This document shows positions 752 through 6,434 of a stretch of DNA of 8,478 nucleotides, piece after piece. Each line of letters opens with the position of its first letter. Within the stretch, counting starts at the first letter, position 1. The translations under genes were made by a program, and so were the position numbers. The notes beneath the pieces are model-generated. The model ran no database searches and had not been told where the DNA came from. It saw only the letters and a program-made list of their open reading frames with translations. Source of the stretch: a virus (Duplodnaviria > Heunggongvirae > Uroviricota > Caudoviricetes); IMG/VR virus record IMGVR_UViG_2541047850_000013; one strand, given 5' to 3'.

Positions 752-783
752 AAAAAACAAAACCCGCCGAAGCGGGTTTTTTG
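752..783. terminator. Bidirectional rho-independent terminator closing the methyltransferase cassette
   Basis: GC-rich hairpin AAACCCGC-CGAA-GCGGGTTT (760..779) with an A-run on the 5' side and a T-run on the 3' side, so either strand reads stem-loop followed by a U-tract. Sits 12 nt past the methyltransferase stop. Confidence 0.75.
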
Positions 784-794
784 TACATATAGAA

Positions 795-1892
795 TTATGG
801 TATTAATCCAGCTGTTCTTGCTTTATTAATATAATTTTTACAGTGGTTAGCCAAATACTCTGCAAACTTGCATGGAAGTGCATTTCCTATTATGACGCAT
901 ACTTTATCCATCAAAGCTGTATCAAACACATAGTTATCAGGAAAAGTCTGTAGTCTAGCAGCTTCTCGAACAGAAATAGTACGCGTATCCTCAGGATGTC
1001 CATATCGCCCACGGCTTAAAGTTGTGCACCCACCTGTAATCGTAGGCGATACGTCATCCCAAAGCATACGACCATAAACATTACTAAATCCTTTATAGTC
1101 GCCTTTATGGCAATCTGGACGGAGTTCTTCGGGAATACACTCCCAAGACATCCCTGGAACAGCCGCTTGTAACCGCTTTATATTGATCTCAGACAAATCC
1201 CTAACAATATGCCAACTCGACAATGGAAACTTCCCTTGCTTCTTAGCCTGTGAAAGAGTTAAGGGTTTTGGCATATCTCCAATAGCTTCTTTAACAGTTA
1301 CCCATTTGGGTTTCTCTCTTCCATCCTTAGAGTGTGATCCATCAGGCAATGGGATGGCAAATCCTTTTCCTGCCAACAGAACAAGCCTTTTTCTGAACTG
1401 TGGTACACCAAAGTCAGCTACTTGCAAAACTCCATAATTAACTATGTAACCAAGTTTTTTCAATCTCTCAATTACTGGCGAAAGAAGATGATTTCCCCGG
1501 GAAGCTAATCCAGGAACATTTTCCATCATGATTGCTGATGGATTGGTTTCTTCAACCAACCGTAACATCTCGTTAATCAATAAATTACGAGGGTCCTCCC
1601 TTTTATACTTGGCAGTGAGACTAGTAAATCCTTGACATGGCGGGCACGCAGATAAAAGATCTAAATGTTGCTCAGGGATAAGATTTAGGATATCACTCCC
1701 CTTTACAAACCGAATATCTTGAACAAAGAGTTTTGTCTCACGATGATTTGCTTGGAAAGTAGCGGCGGCATGTGCGTCCAGTTCAACGGCAGCTTTGACA
1801 TCAAACCCGGCCATTTTTAGTCCCATGGTTAGTCCCCCACCACCGCTAAATAGGTCAACTGCATTCAAACTGGTCACTGTTTTCTCACTCAT
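795..1892 (-). CDS. DNA (cytosine-5)-methyltransferase, 365 aa
   Basis: All diagnostic C5-MTase motifs in canonical order: motif I DLFSGGGG (aa 13-20, AdoMet binding), motif IV PPCQGF with catalytic Cys86, motif VI ENV (aa 124-126), motif VIII QFRKR (aa 165-169), motif IX RTISVREAARLQTFPDNY, motif X GNALP (aa 336-340). A variable target-recognition region lies between motifs VIII and IX. ATG at 1892 overlaps the upstream gene's stop. Confidence 0.93.
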   Translation of the reverse strand: MSEKTVTSLNAVDLFSGGGGLTMGLKMAGFDVKAAVELDAHAAATFQANHRETKLFVQDIRFVKGSDILNLIPEQHLDLLSACPPCQGFTSLTAKYKREDPRNLLINEMLRLVEETNPSAIMMENVPGLASRGNHLLSPVIERLKKLGYIVNYGVLQVADFGVPQFRKRLVLLAGKGFAIPLPDGSHSKDGREKPKWVTVKEAIGDMPKPLTLSQAKKQGKFPLSSWHIVRDLSEINIKRLQAAVPGMSWECIPEELRPDCHKGDYKGFSNVYGRMLWDDVSPTITGGCTTLSRGRYGHPEDTRTISVREAARLQTFPDNYVFDTALMDKVCVIIGNALPCKFAEYLANHCKNYINKARTAGLIP

Positions 1893-3996
1893 TATTTCCC
1901 AACTTCAACTGTTCTGCCTCATCCAAGAATTCTTGGTGAGTTTGAGTTGTCCTCAGCAAGAACCCTGCCCAATCAACGGGTGTTAGGCGTTTTTCTTCGA
2001 TGTATGCAGTATAAGCTTTACGACGTGCCCCACTCAAGCGCTCCCCATCACTTACCAGCGTAACGTGAAAATCAGATGCTATTGATTTAAAATCATTATG
2101 TCTCTCATCGTTCAAAAACTCCTCGAATGTTTCGAAGTAATTAATAATACGATCCATTTCATCATTGGAAATATAATGATGTGGCTTTTTTATTTCAATT
2201 ATTTGTAATTTTCCATCCTGACTAAACAATACAAAGTCTGGTCTTTTATTTTTTTTATCAAAATCTATAAGAAATATCTCCTCACCAGTTTTCTTTTTAT
2301 AAAATTTTTGAAATTCCCTTTTAAGCGTGGACAACGTTTTATTTGCTGTAACTGGGACCCATTGAGGGTTAACTAGCCACGGAGCGGATGCAATTAGATC
2401 TTGTAACTCATCTTCTGCTGTATCCTTTGCGTCTTTTAAAGACTCGAGACGCTCAATAATCTGAAGACGCTTTTTGACCTTTTGACCAAAACTAACGGTT
2501 TCAGCTAGTTGAGCCGTTGCTAAAATATCGTTGAGAACATTGAGCGGTGTATCCGCTTTACTGGAAGCTTCTATTAACTTCTCATCTAAGGATTGTAATG
2601 GTGCTAACATAATACTTAACTGCACTAAATTCTCGAGTGCATCAGGATCATGTAATTCATCACCTCGTAAAGATTTACCCAACAACTTGGCTATTTTTTT
2701 AGCCTGTGCTCGCATATCCTTTTGACCGGCTCCAGGGTATGCTTGCTCGACCTTATCCTCCACTTGCGCTAATTCGAAGAATTGATTCATCATATTATTT
2801 CTAAGGGGGTCGCGAGTTATTTTACCCACAAGTAAAATAACTTCTTGCCCCCAATTCTGAAATTGCGTTCCTAAATCATCAGACCATAGAATATCCCTTC
2901 TATCAGTTTGGATAAGATCTTCTTTTTCGTCTAACCAGTCAGCATGCAACTCACCTACCAAATATGAACGTATAGAGTGCTCTCCAGTAAAACCAGCTTT
3001 TCTATTAAAAACTGCTGTTTGCGCAGCAAACTTACCTCGGCAATAAATTCTAACACCTGCCATTAACTCGTCCTTATAAGGCTCTTTCGCGTATGCAATC
3101 CAACCTAATATCGGGTAAGCTTTCCCTTCATGTTCAAAACCGGCCTTAACAATTGATGAACGCGTGCCGTCAGGATTAAAAGCCGTATAATCACTTAAAT
3201 CCGTACAAGAATCTGTCGCAATACTTCCACTCATGGAACGAAATTCAATTTTAGAGTTAGGCATAACAGGAACAGTAAACTCTCCGACCTCAACTTCATA
3301 GTCAGGATTAGACTTTGTTTTCGAAGTATCAATCAGTTTAATATTCCAGTTTTTACTCTTCACTCCAAAACGTTGTGAAAGCTGCCGAGATAAATCTTTT
3401 ATTTCGCTAATTTTTCTATATTCAAAATCACTTAATATTATTTTAGTATAGGTCCTGTCACTTAGTGTGCCGTCTAAATCCCCAGTTTCCGGTTTATAAG
3501 ACACTGCAGTATCATCCATTATTTTTTCTTTATCTAGCTGAATATGAGCAACCTCATACCCTTCCTTTCCATCACGACTGATTTTTTCCCCACCGGCACT
3601 TATAATCTCGACCCTTTTACAAACACCAAAAGGTGCTAATTTCCCAACGCCTTTCCGTCCCATGACTTTGCGGTGAAACACCTTCGAGGTTTCACCTCTT
3701 TTTGGATCCTTACGTCTTTCTTTGCCAACAACCAAATAAAAGTTCTGTAGTTCATCAGGCGCCATTCCGACGCCATTATCTTCTACTTCTATTGTGACAT
3801 TTTTTGACCTGACAACACCATCCTGTCTAACAGCCAAGTATTGGCCCATAGGTGCTTTTATAGTGACATTAGTCGCATCTGCATCGTAACTGTTAGATAC
3901 TAATTCGGCTATAACAGCATAAGCCCTGTCATATAATTTCACACCTAATTTATCTACTGTCATCCTTGATATCTGCATTTCATATTGACGCGCCAT
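1885..3996 (-). CDS. GHKL-superfamily (MutL/MORC-like) ATPase with central helical region and C-terminal PD-(D/E)xK-like nuclease motif, 703 aa; candidate restriction/effector subunit
   Basis: ATG at 3996 with AGGA 7 nt upstream. Bergerat-fold motifs: N-box ELVSNSYDAD (aa 31-40), G1 box DNGVGM (aa 73-78), G2 box GRKGVGKLAPFG (aa 113-124). Residues about 440-540 are charged, helix-prone and coiled-coil-like. C-terminus GEEIFLIDFDKKNKRPDFVLFSQDGKLQIIEIKKP gives E573...PD587...E601-x-K603. Stop overlaps the methyltransferase start by 8 nt (ATGAGTGA). Confidence 0.85.
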   Translation of the reverse strand: MARQYEMQISRMTVDKLGVKLYDRAYAVIAELVSNSYDADATNVTIKAPMGQYLAVRQDGVVRSKNVTIEVEDNGVGMAPDELQNFYLVVGKERRKDPKRGETSKVFHRKVMGRKGVGKLAPFGVCKRVEIISAGGEKISRDGKEGYEVAHIQLDKEKIMDDTAVSYKPETGDLDGTLSDRTYTKIILSDFEYRKISEIKDLSRQLSQRFGVKSKNWNIKLIDTSKTKSNPDYEVEVGEFTVPVMPNSKIEFRSMSGSIATDSCTDLSDYTAFNPDGTRSSIVKAGFEHEGKAYPILGWIAYAKEPYKDELMAGVRIYCRGKFAAQTAVFNRKAGFTGEHSIRSYLVGELHADWLDEKEDLIQTDRRDILWSDDLGTQFQNWGQEVILLVGKITRDPLRNNMMNQFFELAQVEDKVEQAYPGAGQKDMRAQAKKIAKLLGKSLRGDELHDPDALENLVQLSIMLAPLQSLDEKLIEASSKADTPLNVLNDILATAQLAETVSFGQKVKKRLQIIERLESLKDAKDTAEDELQDLIASAPWLVNPQWVPVTANKTLSTLKREFQKFYKKKTGEEIFLIDFDKKNKRPDFVLFSQDGKLQIIEIKKPHHYISNDEMDRIINYFETFEEFLNDERHNDFKSIASDFHVTLVSDGERLSGARRKAYTAYIEEKRLTPVDWAGFLLRTTQTHQEFLDEAEQLKLGNNE

Positions 3997-4090
3997 TTAA
4001 ATATCCTTCTAAAAGAGTATTTTTTGCTCAAAAAGGGGAAGTTTATGTTTGACTAACATAGCAAAAAAACTTTCATCTTCAAGAGGTTCA
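3997..4090 (-). promoter_or_regulatory. RBS and AT-rich putative promoter region for the ATPase/methyltransferase cassette
   Basis: AGGA at 4004..4007 (minus strand), 7 nt from the ATG. Upstream sequence is very A+T-rich with weak sigma70-like hexamers (for example TTGAAG-16-TATGTT on the minus strand). No single convincing -35/-10 pair. Confidence 0.3.
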
Positions 4091-4343
4091 CACCAAAAGA
4101 ATTTACCTGGTTCACATAACCAGCTGGATTAGTGTTGAGTTTTGGGTAAACCTGAGGATTGAGAAACCAGTACTGATAAATGGGTATCCGCTGTTTTCGT
4201 CCCTCTCCTGAGCTACCGTGTATTGAAATGGCATCGACACTATTACATGGTAGGAGGTTGTATGTATGGTTTAGATATTTTGCATCTTTCACAGACACTT
4301 TTTACCTTTGCCATATCCTTCCACATTGTTTCTCCGGAAATCA

Positions 4344-4511
4344 CTAACGGTTTGGCATTTGCAGAACCATTATCAGCCATAGCTTCTTGCCGTTAACTTC
4401 GGTTGCACCTGATTGTTGCTCACCTTCAGGCAATGATGGGTTATATACACGGACTGAGCTCACTGCAGTAACAACCTTCCCAGTCAACTTACCTATGCTT
4501 TCAACCATCAT
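4344..4511 (-). CDS. Small hypothetical ORF (55 aa); coding status doubtful
   Basis: ORF-track ORF 4344..4565 trimmed to the first ATG (MMVESIGKL...); listed start is TTG. Weak RBS, and an alternative 46-codon ORF (4240..4380, minus strand) overlaps in another frame. Confidence 0.2.
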   Translation of the reverse strand: MMVESIGKLTGKVVTAVSSVRVYNPSLPEGEQQSGATEVNGKKLWLIMVLQMPNR

Positions 4512-4572
4512 CGTAGCGGCATACTTCCGAATTGCTATTATTTCAATTCTGCACCGTTTGCTCAATGTAACG

Positions 4573-4983
4573 CTACCTAAAACGTCGCCGATAGAACGCC
4601 AGCACGCGCTGCATAACTTCGCTCTTCCGGCACTCGCTACAGATTATGTTCTGACGCCTGTCATAACGACGTATTTCTCCATCAGGTAATGACCAGATAA
4701 GGTCCGGATCAACCGCAGATGGTTTCTTCAGCTTTGCCCTTGAGAGCTTTTTACGGGCATTTTGCCAGTCCTTACGCGCCTGTTCAGACGGGAATAACCC
4801 GTAACTAGGGTTGTATACATCGCCACTGGCAACCAGCTCTCTGGCCAGAACGCTCATCAGATATCTTGTTGCCCCAGTTTTAGCTTCCAGTTGTCGTAAC
4901 GTCTCACGCCCACTCTGGCGTACGAGTTCAAGAACCTGCCCTTTAATTTTTTCCCGCTCTTCTTGTGTAAAAACTTTTGCCAC
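4573..4983 (-). CDS. Ren-like protein (phage lambda ren family) with N-terminal extension, 136 aa
   Basis: GTG start at 4983 preceded by strong AGGAGG 4 nt upstream. Central KTGAT...LARELVASG and C-terminal SECRKSEVMQRVLAFY resemble, from memory, lambda Ren (…ALTGAT…MARAGLL… and …KECRQSAAMKRVLAVY…). Sits directly after the replication gene, as ren does in lambda. Confidence 0.5.
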   Translation of the reverse strand: MAKVFTQEEREKIKGQVLELVRQSGRETLRQLEAKTGATRYLMSVLARELVASGDVYNPSYGLFPSEQARKDWQNARKKLSRAKLKKPSAVDPDLIWSLPDGEIRRYDRRQNIICSECRKSEVMQRVLAFYRRRFR

Positions 4984-5023
4984 AAGCCCTCCTGAAAATT
5001 ACCTCATGACCAGAAATTAACAC

Positions 5024-5986
5024 TTACCCCCTGAAGCCCGGCGGAATTTCAGTGTCCGGTTCAGAAATGTGATTCACGCAACGCTGCGCAGGCGAACGCC
5101 CCAGGCGGATAACCAGTTCATCCCATTTTTCCCGGAGTTTTGCCGGACTCATGATGTTTTTTACCCAGAACGAATCCCGCTGGAGACGCCCAAACATTTC
5201 ACAAATTTGTCTGTGAGTTCTGCCATCCAGCATCCGCATTGTGCGAACGTCATTGGCCCATGCTGTCCAGTTGGGTTCTTTCGGTCTAGTGATCTCGCCA
5301 TCATAGCTGGCCGCCTGCTCGTAAAGACTCACGATTCGTCCCCAGATCCACTGTGCGCACACCAAATCTTCCTGACTTCCCCACTGGCGTTTTTTCGCAC
5401 TGAACACAACCGCGTCAGGGTGTCGGGTTAAAAAATCCTGTTCAGCCGTCTGCGGGTCCGGTTGCGAAGCGTCAGGACAAGAAGATCTTTTATCTGACGG
5501 ATCAGGTTTTAATACTGACGGATCGGGGTCAATCATCGCCCCCCTAATCGGCAGTTTTTTATCAACAGTTGATCCATCAAAATTTGACGGGTCAACCGTT
5601 GAGGGGTCAATATTTGACGGGTCAACTGTTAACGGGTCATTTTTTGCCGGGCTAATTTTTCTTTTCGGTTTATATGACTCACGCGCCGCCGCCGCAGCTG
5701 CTTCGAGTTTTTCCACATTAAGTCGATAGATATTGCTTACATTACGCCCACCGACCTTACGCTCTTCCTTCGTCAGCCAGCCCTCTTTCGCCAGTTCTGC
5801 AATAGCCGATTTCACTGTGGATTCACTTCTTGCACCGATCTGACGCCGGATAGTTTCAATGGCAGGCCATGACACGCCCTCGTCATTGCTGTAGTCTGCA
5901 AGACGGGCCATAACCGCCACCCTGGATAAGATCATGCCGGTGAAGGCGCACCCTTCCCAGACAAGACCATGAAGCTTGCTGCTCAT
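5024..5986 (-). CDS. Phage replication initiator (lambda O-like / replisome organiser) with N-terminal winged-HTH domain and internal repeat linker, about 320 aa
   Basis: ATG at 5986 preceded by G-rich RBS (alternative GTG at 6001). N-terminus MARLADYSNDEGVSWPAIETIRRQIGARSESTVKSAIAELAKEGWL is typical of phage replication-initiator HTH domains. The linker carries 5-aa repeats (VDPSN-like) encoded by 15-bp DNA iterons. Follows the cro-like and YdaT-like genes as O follows cro-cII in lambda. Confidence 0.75.
   Translation of the reverse strand: MSSKLHGLVWEGCAFTGMILSRVAVMARLADYSNDEGVSWPAIETIRRQIGARSESTVKSAIAELAKEGWLTKEERKVGGRNVSNIYRLNVEKLEAAAAAARESYKPKRKISPAKNDPLTVDPSNIDPSTVDPSNFDGSTVDKKLPIRGAMIDPDPSVLKPDPSDKRSSCPDASQPDPQTAEQDFLTRHPDAVVFSAKKRQWGSQEDLVCAQWIWGRIVSLYEQAASYDGEITRPKEPNWTAWANDVRTMRMLDGRTHRQICEMFGRLQRDSFWVKNIMSPAKLREKWDELVIRLGRSPAQRCVNHISEPDTEIPPGFRG
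5569..5675. repeat. Putative origin of replication: six 15-bp-spaced iterons plus adjacent A+T-rich tract, inside the replication gene
   Basis: Direct repeats at exact 15-bp period starting 5569, 5584, 5599, 5614, 5629, 5644: TTGATCCATCAA, TTGACGGGTCAA, TTGAGGGGTCAA, TTGACGGGTCAA, TTAACGGGTCAT, TTGCCGGGCTAA. Each is an imperfect palindrome (TTGAC..GTCAA). A+T-rich tract follows (about 5640..5675). Confidence 0.6.
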
Positions 5987-6008: not shown

Positions 6009-6434
6009 TTAGTGCATCACCACAGCATTCCCTGCCGGGCCGCCGCGATTCATCTGGTCATACAAAACAACCGCTGACGCAACAAAATCATCGACATCCT
6101 TCACCAGCCGATCCCTCCGTTCGACGATCTCACGGTAATATTCAGAACTGTGGCTGCGCATACGGGCCACCAGCAAAGGCGGCATCGCCTTTTCGATCGC
6201 CGGTAACAGAGCCTGCATTTTTTCAACAGCATCAGGGGTGTCTTTATCCAGCCAACGGAAAATTTTCTGGGTATTACGGGCCAGGGCTTCCGGATGGCTG
6301 TCGTCGTACAGTTCAGGGAACGTCATCCCCAGTTCGAAATAAGTCCGGGCTATTTCAGCTGCAGGAACTTTCTCACCATCAGGGTATGCCCAGGCATTCA
6401 TCGCCATGCGGATGTGCTCATGTTTGATTTTCAT
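6009..6434 (-). CDS. ydaT: YdaT-like protein (occupies the cII position; family reported toxic when derepressed in Rac prophage), 141 aa
   Basis: ATG at 6434 with AGAGG RBS; N-terminus MKIKHEHI... recalled as characteristic of YdaT-family proteins. Overlaps the upstream cro-like gene by 17 nt. Family assignment is from memory, not a search. Confidence 0.65.
   Translation of the reverse strand: MKIKHEHIRMAMNAWAYPDGEKVPAAEIARTYFELGMTFPELYDDSHPEALARNTQKIFRWLDKDTPDAVEKMQALLPAIEKAMPPLLVARMRSHSSEYYREIVERRDRLVKDVDDFVASAVVLYDQMNRGGPAGNAVVMH

Follow-up and report, generated by a model that had tools for sequence, protein, structure and literature searches.

Which function is served by a large protein annotated merely as an 'ATP-binding protein' (RefSeq WP_021548141.1), and encoded against a DNA methyltransferase gene in a prophage, is the question raised by the locus analyzed here. 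The locus lies in an 8,478-nucleotide (nt) stretch of a virus of the Caudoviricetes (IMG/VR record IMGVR_UViG_2541047850_000013; hereafter the window, to whose positions the coordinates refer unless a residue number or another record is given), which was 100% identical to a Rac-like/lambdoid prophage of Escherichia coli B2.3. A gene on the minus strand (1885..3996) encodes a protein of 703 amino acids (aa) composed of a GHKL ATPase domain, a transducer-like domain, a helical linker and a predicted PD-(D/E)xK nuclease domain, while the adjoining gene on the same strand (795..1892) encodes a C5 cytosine DNA methyltransferase of 365 aa, its presumed modification partner. Based on the evidence presented below, the 703-aa protein is considered, with a probability of roughly 0.8, to serve as the restriction subunit in a restriction-modification cassette of two genes, which forms an insert of low guanine-plus-cytosine (GC) content in this prophage.

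Conserved residues of the predicted nuclease site

The preliminary description of this DNA had pointed to a segment towards the protein's C-terminus (2167-2289, minus strand; translation TGEEIFLIDFDKKNKRPDFVLFSQDGKLQIIEIKKPHHYIS) as a restriction-endonuclease active site. The 35-residue peptide that it quoted corresponded to aa 571-605 (2182-2286) of the open reading frame 1885..3996, and both the peptide and the numbering of its residues E573, D587, E601 and K603 agreed with the translation. The spacing of these residues, from which an active site had been argued, proved uninformative: the pattern PD-x(8-25)-[DE]-x-K was matched four times in the same protein (at aa 80, 275, 451 and 586), and at least once in approximately 30% of shuffled versions of its sequence. 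The pattern was consequently dropped as proof by itself, and the copy at aa 586 was taken as real because it is conserved across the family. In the main conservation set, which comprised 197 non-identical family members gathered from protein and genome searches, D587 and K603 were each kept in 196 sequences and E601 in 195, the remaining two having D at this position. Two smaller alignments of homologues (33 and 115 sequences) showed D587, F588, E601, I602, K603, R616 and Y620 to be invariant. Three of the four residues originally put forward were therefore retained as a near-invariant PD-(D/E)xK site, whereas E573 (2278..2280) was rejected as its first catalytic acid, since E was found at this position in 46 of the 197 sequences, with D, T, S, K, A, P or V in the others. 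E573 lies outside the conserved site, and no strand was assigned there in the structural model described below.

The conserved residues could be arranged along the known motifs of this nuclease superfamily. Motif II (P586-D587; 2236..2241, minus strand, as for all features of this gene) provides the predicted catalytic Asp, which opens a beta strand; P586 was P in 161 and A in 31 of the 197 sequences, and D587 was aligned to the invariant D533 of a distant, HgiDII-like group of relatives. Motif III (E601-I602-K603; 2188..2196) corresponds to (D/E)xK, located where the following strand (modelled as aa 596-602) ends; at this position, a true member of the HgiDII family carries D-L-K. On the helix that follows motif III (aa 611-629), the residues of R616-x3-Y620 (2137..2151) were each kept in 196 of 197 sequences, and this pair probably corresponds to QxxxY, which is motif IV in RecB-like nucleases. 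Among candidates for the acidic residue of motif I, the strongest was E528 (2413..2415), which was invariant in the 115-sequence alignment, aligned to the invariant E486 of the distant HgiDII-like group, and placed within a conserved E-L-Q..I...P-W-L element at the start of the nuclease domain. An alternative candidate was E561 (2314-2316), kept in 192 of 197 sequences.

These counts, with E to D as the sole replacement at position 601, are difficult to reconcile with a catalytically dead restriction-endonuclease fold that would serve only for DNA binding or oligomerization. Inactive PD-(D/E)xK folds are known, and a plasmid-borne relative from Pantoea has E-F-M replacing E-x-K; yet no other nuclease gene is present in the 3.8-kb cassette. 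Moreover, the equivalent lysine of VcSduA, a Shedu protein of Vibrio cholerae, is essential for defence (PMC12137116). A dead domain is thus regarded as extremely improbable.

Predicted fold of the C-terminal domain

The predicted PD-(D/E)xK nuclease domain, of Shedu/DUF4263-like type, occupies approximately aa 528-703 (1888..2415). With 115 homologues as input, AlphaFold2 modelled aa 500-703 at a predicted local distance difference test (pLDDT) score of 86.6 and a predicted template modelling score of 0.82, and this model displayed the alpha/beta restriction-endonuclease-like fold on which the preliminary description had staked its proposal. The model consisted of a helix (553-570), two strands (589-593 and 596-602), a helix (611-629), a strand (642-648), a helix, a strand (671-674) and a final helix, with D587 directly preceding the first strand, and E601 and K603 located at the end of the second. 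It resembled the PD-(D/E)xK nucleases N.BspD6I, Shedu SduA, FokI and NucS, followed by AF1548, LlaBIII and MspJI, and the top Foldseek match of the domain was the Shedu nuclease domain 8ti9 (E 5.8e-4).

At the sequence level, the similarity to described nucleases was faint. In Pfam, HSDR_N_2 matched the window protein with E 4e-4, as it did 13 of 33 relatives, while SduA_C gave no match to the window protein at E<=1; it was matched by 21 of the 33 relatives at E<=0.01 (best E 1e-5), with tabulated scores of 17-24 bits that lie under the gathering threshold of 27 bits (PF14082) and thus below the level required for assignment to Shedu. PADLOC contained no dedicated model for the system and returned N-terminal REase_II matches together with a match of its SduA model to aa 507-607 (E 1.7e-5), which covered part of that model only. 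When the C-terminal domain was used as a single-sequence query against 1.84 billion cluster representatives, only 215 clusters were recovered. Every full-length protein among the 150 matches listed was 620-750 aa long with the domain at its C-terminus, and all ten full-length matches that were scanned carried an N-terminal GHKL domain. The link of this domain to Shedu is therefore remote, given that no classical Shedu protein of ~400 aa was found among the matches listed (150 of 215 clusters).

The solved structures differ from the window protein in other respects as well. Bacillus cereus SduA (8ti8/8ti9) shares ~14% identity with it and was not matched by the family profile in PDB sequences; it has a different N-terminal sensor, assembles as tetramer/octamer, and has neither an ATPase nor a methyltransferase. 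The cleavage domains of FokI and N.BspD6I showed no detectable sequence relationship to the C-terminal domain, and these two enzymes have differing recognition domains and lack an ATPase. Since the family profile matches no nuclease sequence of the PDB, the link to solved nucleases is one at the level of fold only.

ATPase, transducer-like domain and linker

The fusion to a GHKL ATPase claimed in the preliminary description was borne out by profile searches. PHROG 6203, a family of unknown function, matched the protein over its full length (9e-78), and Pfam HATPase_c_3 was found above its cut-off at aa 28-140 (7e-19), within a Bergerat-fold ATPase domain that spans approximately aa 1-165 (3502..3996). 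The GHKL motifs were intact (I, E31-x3-N35-x2-D38; II, D73-x-G75-x-G77; III, G113..G116-x-G118; IV, T184, slightly past this range), and their residues were kept in 192-197 of the 197 relatives. Purifying selection was evident on both the ATPase and the nuclease site.

The ATPase is followed by a transducer-like middle domain (approximately aa 166-372; 2881..3501), recognized from a full-length AlphaFold2 model of moderate quality (pLDDT 74.5), which in Foldseek aligned over 410-520 columns to two-domain ATPase modules, namely the N and M domains of Hsp90/HtpG/TRAP1, MutL LN40, MLH1, SMCHD1 and the ATPase region of GyrB/ParE. Across the 197 sequences, K322 and R366 were near-invariant, and the most conserved stretch of the whole protein was W354-S372 (WLDE..EDLIQTDRRDILWS; 2881-2937), in which D356, D360, Q363, T364, D365, R366 and D368 were near-invariant. 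In the full-length model, the loop formed by aa 359-366 had pLDDT <50. W354-S372 resembles the QTK loop of GyrB and the catalytic-loop Arg of Hsp90, and may therefore act as a gamma-phosphate sensor or switch loop. According to the AlphaFold2 secondary structure, an all-helical linker (approximately aa 373-527; 2416..2880) joins the ATPase/transducer module to the nuclease domain.

Linkage to a C5 cytosine methyltransferase

The methyltransferase was complete, its aa 10-352 being aligned to positions 2-323 of the 324 of Pfam DNA_methylase (E 6e-58); it was also matched by TIGR00675 (dcm), and the motifs FSGGGG, PPCQ, ENV and GNA were present in its sequence. Its start codon lies within the end of the restriction gene, the stop of the latter and the ATG of the former being contained in an overlap of 8 nt (ATGAGTGA; 1885..1892, minus strand), which is read from the sequence as translational coupling of the two genes.

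The linkage was surveyed in one genome per species, which resulted in 80 loci with proteins 49-63% identical to the 703-aa protein. They were distributed among Proteobacteria, Nitrospirota, Acidobacteriota, Planctomycetota, Cyanobacteria, Chloroflexota, Firmicutes, Verrucomicrobiota, Patescibacteria and others. A C5 methyltransferase was found at 78 of the 80 loci, and in the other two the contig ended directly after the gene, so that the linkage held at all 78 loci where it could be assessed. In approximately 74 of the 80, an orthologous methyltransferase (48-68% identity) was located directly downstream on the same strand, whereas the nearby methyltransferase was a different one (26-28% identical) at three loci (L010, L024 and L055). 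The same pairing was observed in four more homologues looked up singly and in three distant plasmid relatives. In a Rhizomicrobium genome (locus L007), a second protein with an HATPase_c_3 domain (660 aa; 7771-9753 of that locus) was encoded ~500 bp downstream of the methyltransferase, so that this island could contain two enzymes of GHKL type.

Because this pairing is obligate, and because the two partners have diverged in step, the genes are regarded as a restriction-modification system. The overlap of the genes, the linkage across the 78 loci and the collinearity of the protein with the restriction enzymes BbrUII and HgiDII agree with the earlier suggestion that the methyltransferase has its effector partner in the 703-aa protein. 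A Type IV (methylation-dependent) enzyme was also considered and dropped, being incompatible with an obligately linked methyltransferase.

The survey further revealed a gene for Vsr at 39 of the 80 loci, and none in the window. Vsr at about half of the loci would suit a MutL-like repair factor that acts with Dcm and Vsr on the T:G mismatches arising by deamination of 5-methylcytosine, with no part in restriction, as would the MutL-like ATPase module and the presence of the mismatch endonuclease NucS/EndoMS among the structural neighbours; MutL stimulates Vsr in E. coli. Nevertheless, Vsr is missing from the other half of the loci and from the window itself, the homologues HgiDII and BbrUII are restriction enzymes, and the cassette, which is borne on a prophage, occurs sporadically (21 of 5426 E. 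coli genomes) and has spread horizontally, as is typical of defence genes but not of repair genes. A role in repair instead of restriction is accordingly judged very unlikely.

Relation to the BbrUII and HgiDII restriction enzymes

The NCBIfam model for BbrUII/HgiDII (NF050001) aligned aa 5-697 of the 703-aa protein to positions 1-648 of its 659 positions, with 237.4 bits and E 3.2e-70. As this score lies below the cut-off of the model, the 703-aa protein was treated as belonging to a sister family. A Haloplanus plasmid protein, which scored 793.8 bits against NF050001 and is thus a true family member, was used as comparison: its alignment to the window protein extended over the full length and showed 24% identity, it carries R-L-D...I-D-L-K at the motif, and the methyltransferase adjoining such a true HgiDII-family enzyme was 35% identical, over the full length, to that of the window. 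Ten distant full-length relatives all matched NF050001, with 190-344 bits. Alignment of the close family to 12 distant members (including the Haloplanus protein) with hhalign gave a probability of 100% and E 1.7e-85 over 622 columns, with KRPDFV...QIIEIKkP in register with R-x-Dfv...vivEiKrP. Given this register, the segment first flagged in the window corresponds to a conserved site of the whole HgiDII-like superfamily.

The window protein and BbrUII/HgiDII are hence collinear in their GHKL ATPase, middle domain, helical region and C-terminal R-x-D...(D/E)-x-K-R-P motif, and each is paired with a homologous C5 methyltransferase. They differ in gene order, the restriction gene preceding the methyltransferase gene in the window and following it in the Haloplanus and Pantoea examples, and, while R.HgiDII recognizes GTCGAC, the site of the 703-aa protein need not be the same. 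The literature presents HgiDII as a Type II enzyme that contains a GHKL domain; its C-terminal domain was 'unassigned to any fold' in 2008, whereas another GHKL restriction enzyme, R.VeiORF1182P, had a PD-(D/E)XK C-terminus (PMC2441816). The alignment to the 703-aa family places the C-terminal domain of HgiDII in the PD-(D/E)xK superfamily as a predicted member.

Two observations concern individual members of this wider group. On Pantoea agglomerans plasmid pPagL15_1 (locus L002), a distant relative (4001-5986) is surrounded by phage-like genes and adjoined by a methyltransferase; it has E-F-M-R instead of E-x-K at motif III, and may have a relocated lysine or be inactive. The specificity of M.BbrUII is disputed between two publications (PMC5829577 and PMC5867850), the enzyme being described as an N6-adenine methyltransferase or as a 5-methylcytosine methyltransferase homologous to M.HgiDII.

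Relation to Shedu and paraMORC3 proteins

The combination of a GHKL ATPase with a C-terminal nuclease domain is not new, having been predicted in 2008 and put to the test in 2025. In the earlier study, paraMORC3 proteins were described as GHKL and S5 domains followed by a C-terminal restriction-endonuclease fold with E-D-ExK; they proved prevalent in proteobacteria, and were often encoded in the neighbourhood of restriction-modification genes, together with cytosine methylases and Vsr (Iyer, Abhiman and Aravind 2008, PMC2292703). VcSduA, from the WASA lineage of V. cholerae, defends against T1-like phages, and the substitution of either E27 (E27A, ATPase) or K557 (K557A, nuclease) abolished this defence (Adams et al. 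2025, PMC12137116). In the same paper, which does not mention a methyltransferase, the VcSduA-like proteins are identified as the former paraMORC3 (PMC12137116).

The 703-aa protein was compared with VcSduA and type I-D Shedu through the published description. They are alike in the N-terminal GHKL motifs I-IV, the clamp-like middle domain and the C-terminal PD-(D/E)xK nuclease, with E27 and K557 of VcSduA corresponding to E31 and K603. Of the features that define Shedu, an enzymatic (GHKL) N-terminus and a predicted nuclease were present, but not the self-contained single gene. VcSduA acts as a single gene, whereas the family of the window protein is always linked to a methyltransferase, and this obligate pairing sets the family apart from the standalone VcSduA. 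The likeness to paraMORC3, which was likewise assessed from the description and not from named sequences, extends to architecture and restriction-modification context; however, many nuclease-bearing paraMORC3 genes stand alone according to the 2008 paper, in contrast to the strict methyltransferase linkage found here.

Taken at face value, this architecture would allow the 703-aa protein to be a Shedu-type (type I-D) nuclease like VcSduA, which would receive an infection signal via its GHKL domain and be blind to methylation, the methyltransferase being functionally independent of it or serving some other end. The assignment of GHKL-fused DUF4263 proteins to Shedu type 1D by Gu et al. (2023), the sub-threshold SduA_C and PADLOC SduA matches, and the Shedu nuclease domain as top Foldseek match all point in this direction, although the SduA_C scores themselves stay under the Pfam threshold. 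An independent methyltransferase, on the other hand, is hard to accommodate with its presence at each of the 78 assessable loci in many phyla, with genes that overlap by 8 nt, with methyltransferase and nuclease diverging in step (48-68% versus 49-62% identity), with Vsr in 39 of the 80 loci, and with the collinearity to the proven restriction enzymes HgiDII and BbrUII. Such a methylation-blind nuclease is for these reasons considered unlikely.

Points weighing against a restriction subunit

Although the alternatives discussed above are disfavoured by how consistently a methyltransferase is linked, by the mobile and sporadic occurrence of the cassette and by the conserved catalytic residues, several results weigh against the assignment of the 703-aa protein as a restriction subunit. 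No Pfam nuclease family matched at its gathering threshold, and searches of PDB chains, both with the single protein and with the 115-sequence profile, returned only N-domains of Hsp90, HtpG and MutL, and no nuclease. A separate DNA sequence-recognition domain was not found in the protein. The score of 237.4 bits is far under the curated equivalog cut-off of NF050001 (550 bits), placing the protein outside that family, and function is carried over from BbrUII/HgiDII across ~24% identity. Furthermore, the restriction gene precedes the methyltransferase gene and a controller protein was not found in the leader, which poses a difficulty for the safe establishment of the cassette in a new host. 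Finally, HgiDII is said to be a classical Type II enzyme that was assayed without ATP, which would argue against a strict ATP requirement.

The cassette within the prophage

The two genes are flanked by replication and Ren-like genes at one end and by the genes for DUF968, RusA and an antiterminator at the other. Based on the co-occurrence of cassette and leader, the spread of the prophage backbone and the drop in GC content, the bounds of the insert were set at approximately 780-4572 (~3.8 kb). GC content was 0.35-0.41 in the cassette and 0.50-0.57 in the flanking prophage DNA. Of 5426 complete E. coli genomes, the same 21 contained both cassette and leader, with 99.7-100% identity, while the flanking backbone, which resumes at approximately position 779, was present in thousands of genomes. 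The near-identity of the cassette across carriers suggests, as judged from the sequences, a recent spread on related prophages. A megablast search with the cassette DNA against 50,697 phage records gave no match.

The insert directly follows a Ren-like (DUF977) gene, a position that corresponds to the ren/nin accessory-gene hotspot of lambda. The 21 carriers originated from humans, chickens, a dog, cattle and lake water, and several of their prophages had an extra insert of ~2 kb nearby, containing genes for another 'ATP-binding protein' and a DUF1627 protein.

The methyltransferase stop codon is immediately followed by a strong hairpin resembling an intrinsic terminator (AAAACCCGC-TTCG-GCGGGTTTT followed by a T-run; 759..780, minus strand), which lies at the left edge of the cassette, where this joins the common prophage backbone. 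Upstream of the restriction gene, a leader of 576 bp (3997..4572, minus strand) carries no RefSeq gene, and is assigned to the insert because it is confined to the same 21 genomes. Its small open reading frames had no Pfam match, the leader had no Rfam match and no convincing repeats, and promoter-like sites were no more common in it than in shuffled sequence. The leader presumably holds the promoter and regulatory elements, and may also hold whatever delays expression of the restriction gene. Elsewhere in the window, the gene at 6009-6434 (minus strand) received conflicting annotations, being a 'toxin YdaT family protein' in RefSeq and a 'CII-like transcriptional activator' by its best PHROG match (2e-47).

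Proposed mechanism and significance

With the 703-aa protein as restriction subunit, the methyltransferase would put 5-methylcytosine on the host's own sites, and only unmodified incoming DNA would be cut. Where the DNA is unmodified, two subunits would bind ATP and dimerize through their GHKL modules, in a manner comparable to MutL, MORC and Hsp90, the middle domains would clamp the DNA, and the two C-terminal nuclease domains would thereby be positioned or unlocked. D587, E601 and K603, assisted by an upstream Glu (E528 or E561) and R616/Y620, would then bind Mg2+ and cut the DNA as a double-strand break. For this protein we thus infer a nuclease activity that would be ATP-dependent and methylation-sensitive, as well as the geometry of the dimer. 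Control of cleavage by ATP is likely, since the GHKL motifs are kept in 192-197 of the 197 relatives and VcSduA needs both its ATPase and its nuclease residues.

It is further conceivable, as a tentative proposal to which clearly less than even odds are given, that the HgiDII-type enzymes and the sister family are methylation-guarded nucleases of Shedu class, in which a MutL/MORC-like GHKL clamp would have to bind or hydrolyse ATP before two PD-(D/E)xK domains could come together at an unmethylated site. If this were true, they would represent an ATP-switched class of restriction enzymes whose mechanism differs from those of Types I, III and ISP, and would bridge restriction-modification and Shedu immunity in evolutionary terms.

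The findings on the 703-aa protein do not overturn current understanding, and what they add is modest: the C-terminal domain of HgiDII type is given a predicted fold and a predicted active site, HgiDII-like restriction enzymes are explicitly linked to type I-D Shedu/paraMORC3, and the branch to which the 703-aa protein belongs is shown to be strictly linked to a methyltransferase. Being compact (two genes) and highly conserved, at 49-62% identity over more than 10 phyla, the system is convenient for studying the control of a nuclease by a GHKL domain. The 'ATP-binding protein' can be re-annotated as a nuclease subunit, belonging to a restriction-modification system carried by a prophage, an annotation that bears on the phage host range, plasmid uptake and transformability of ~0.4% of E. 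coli strains.

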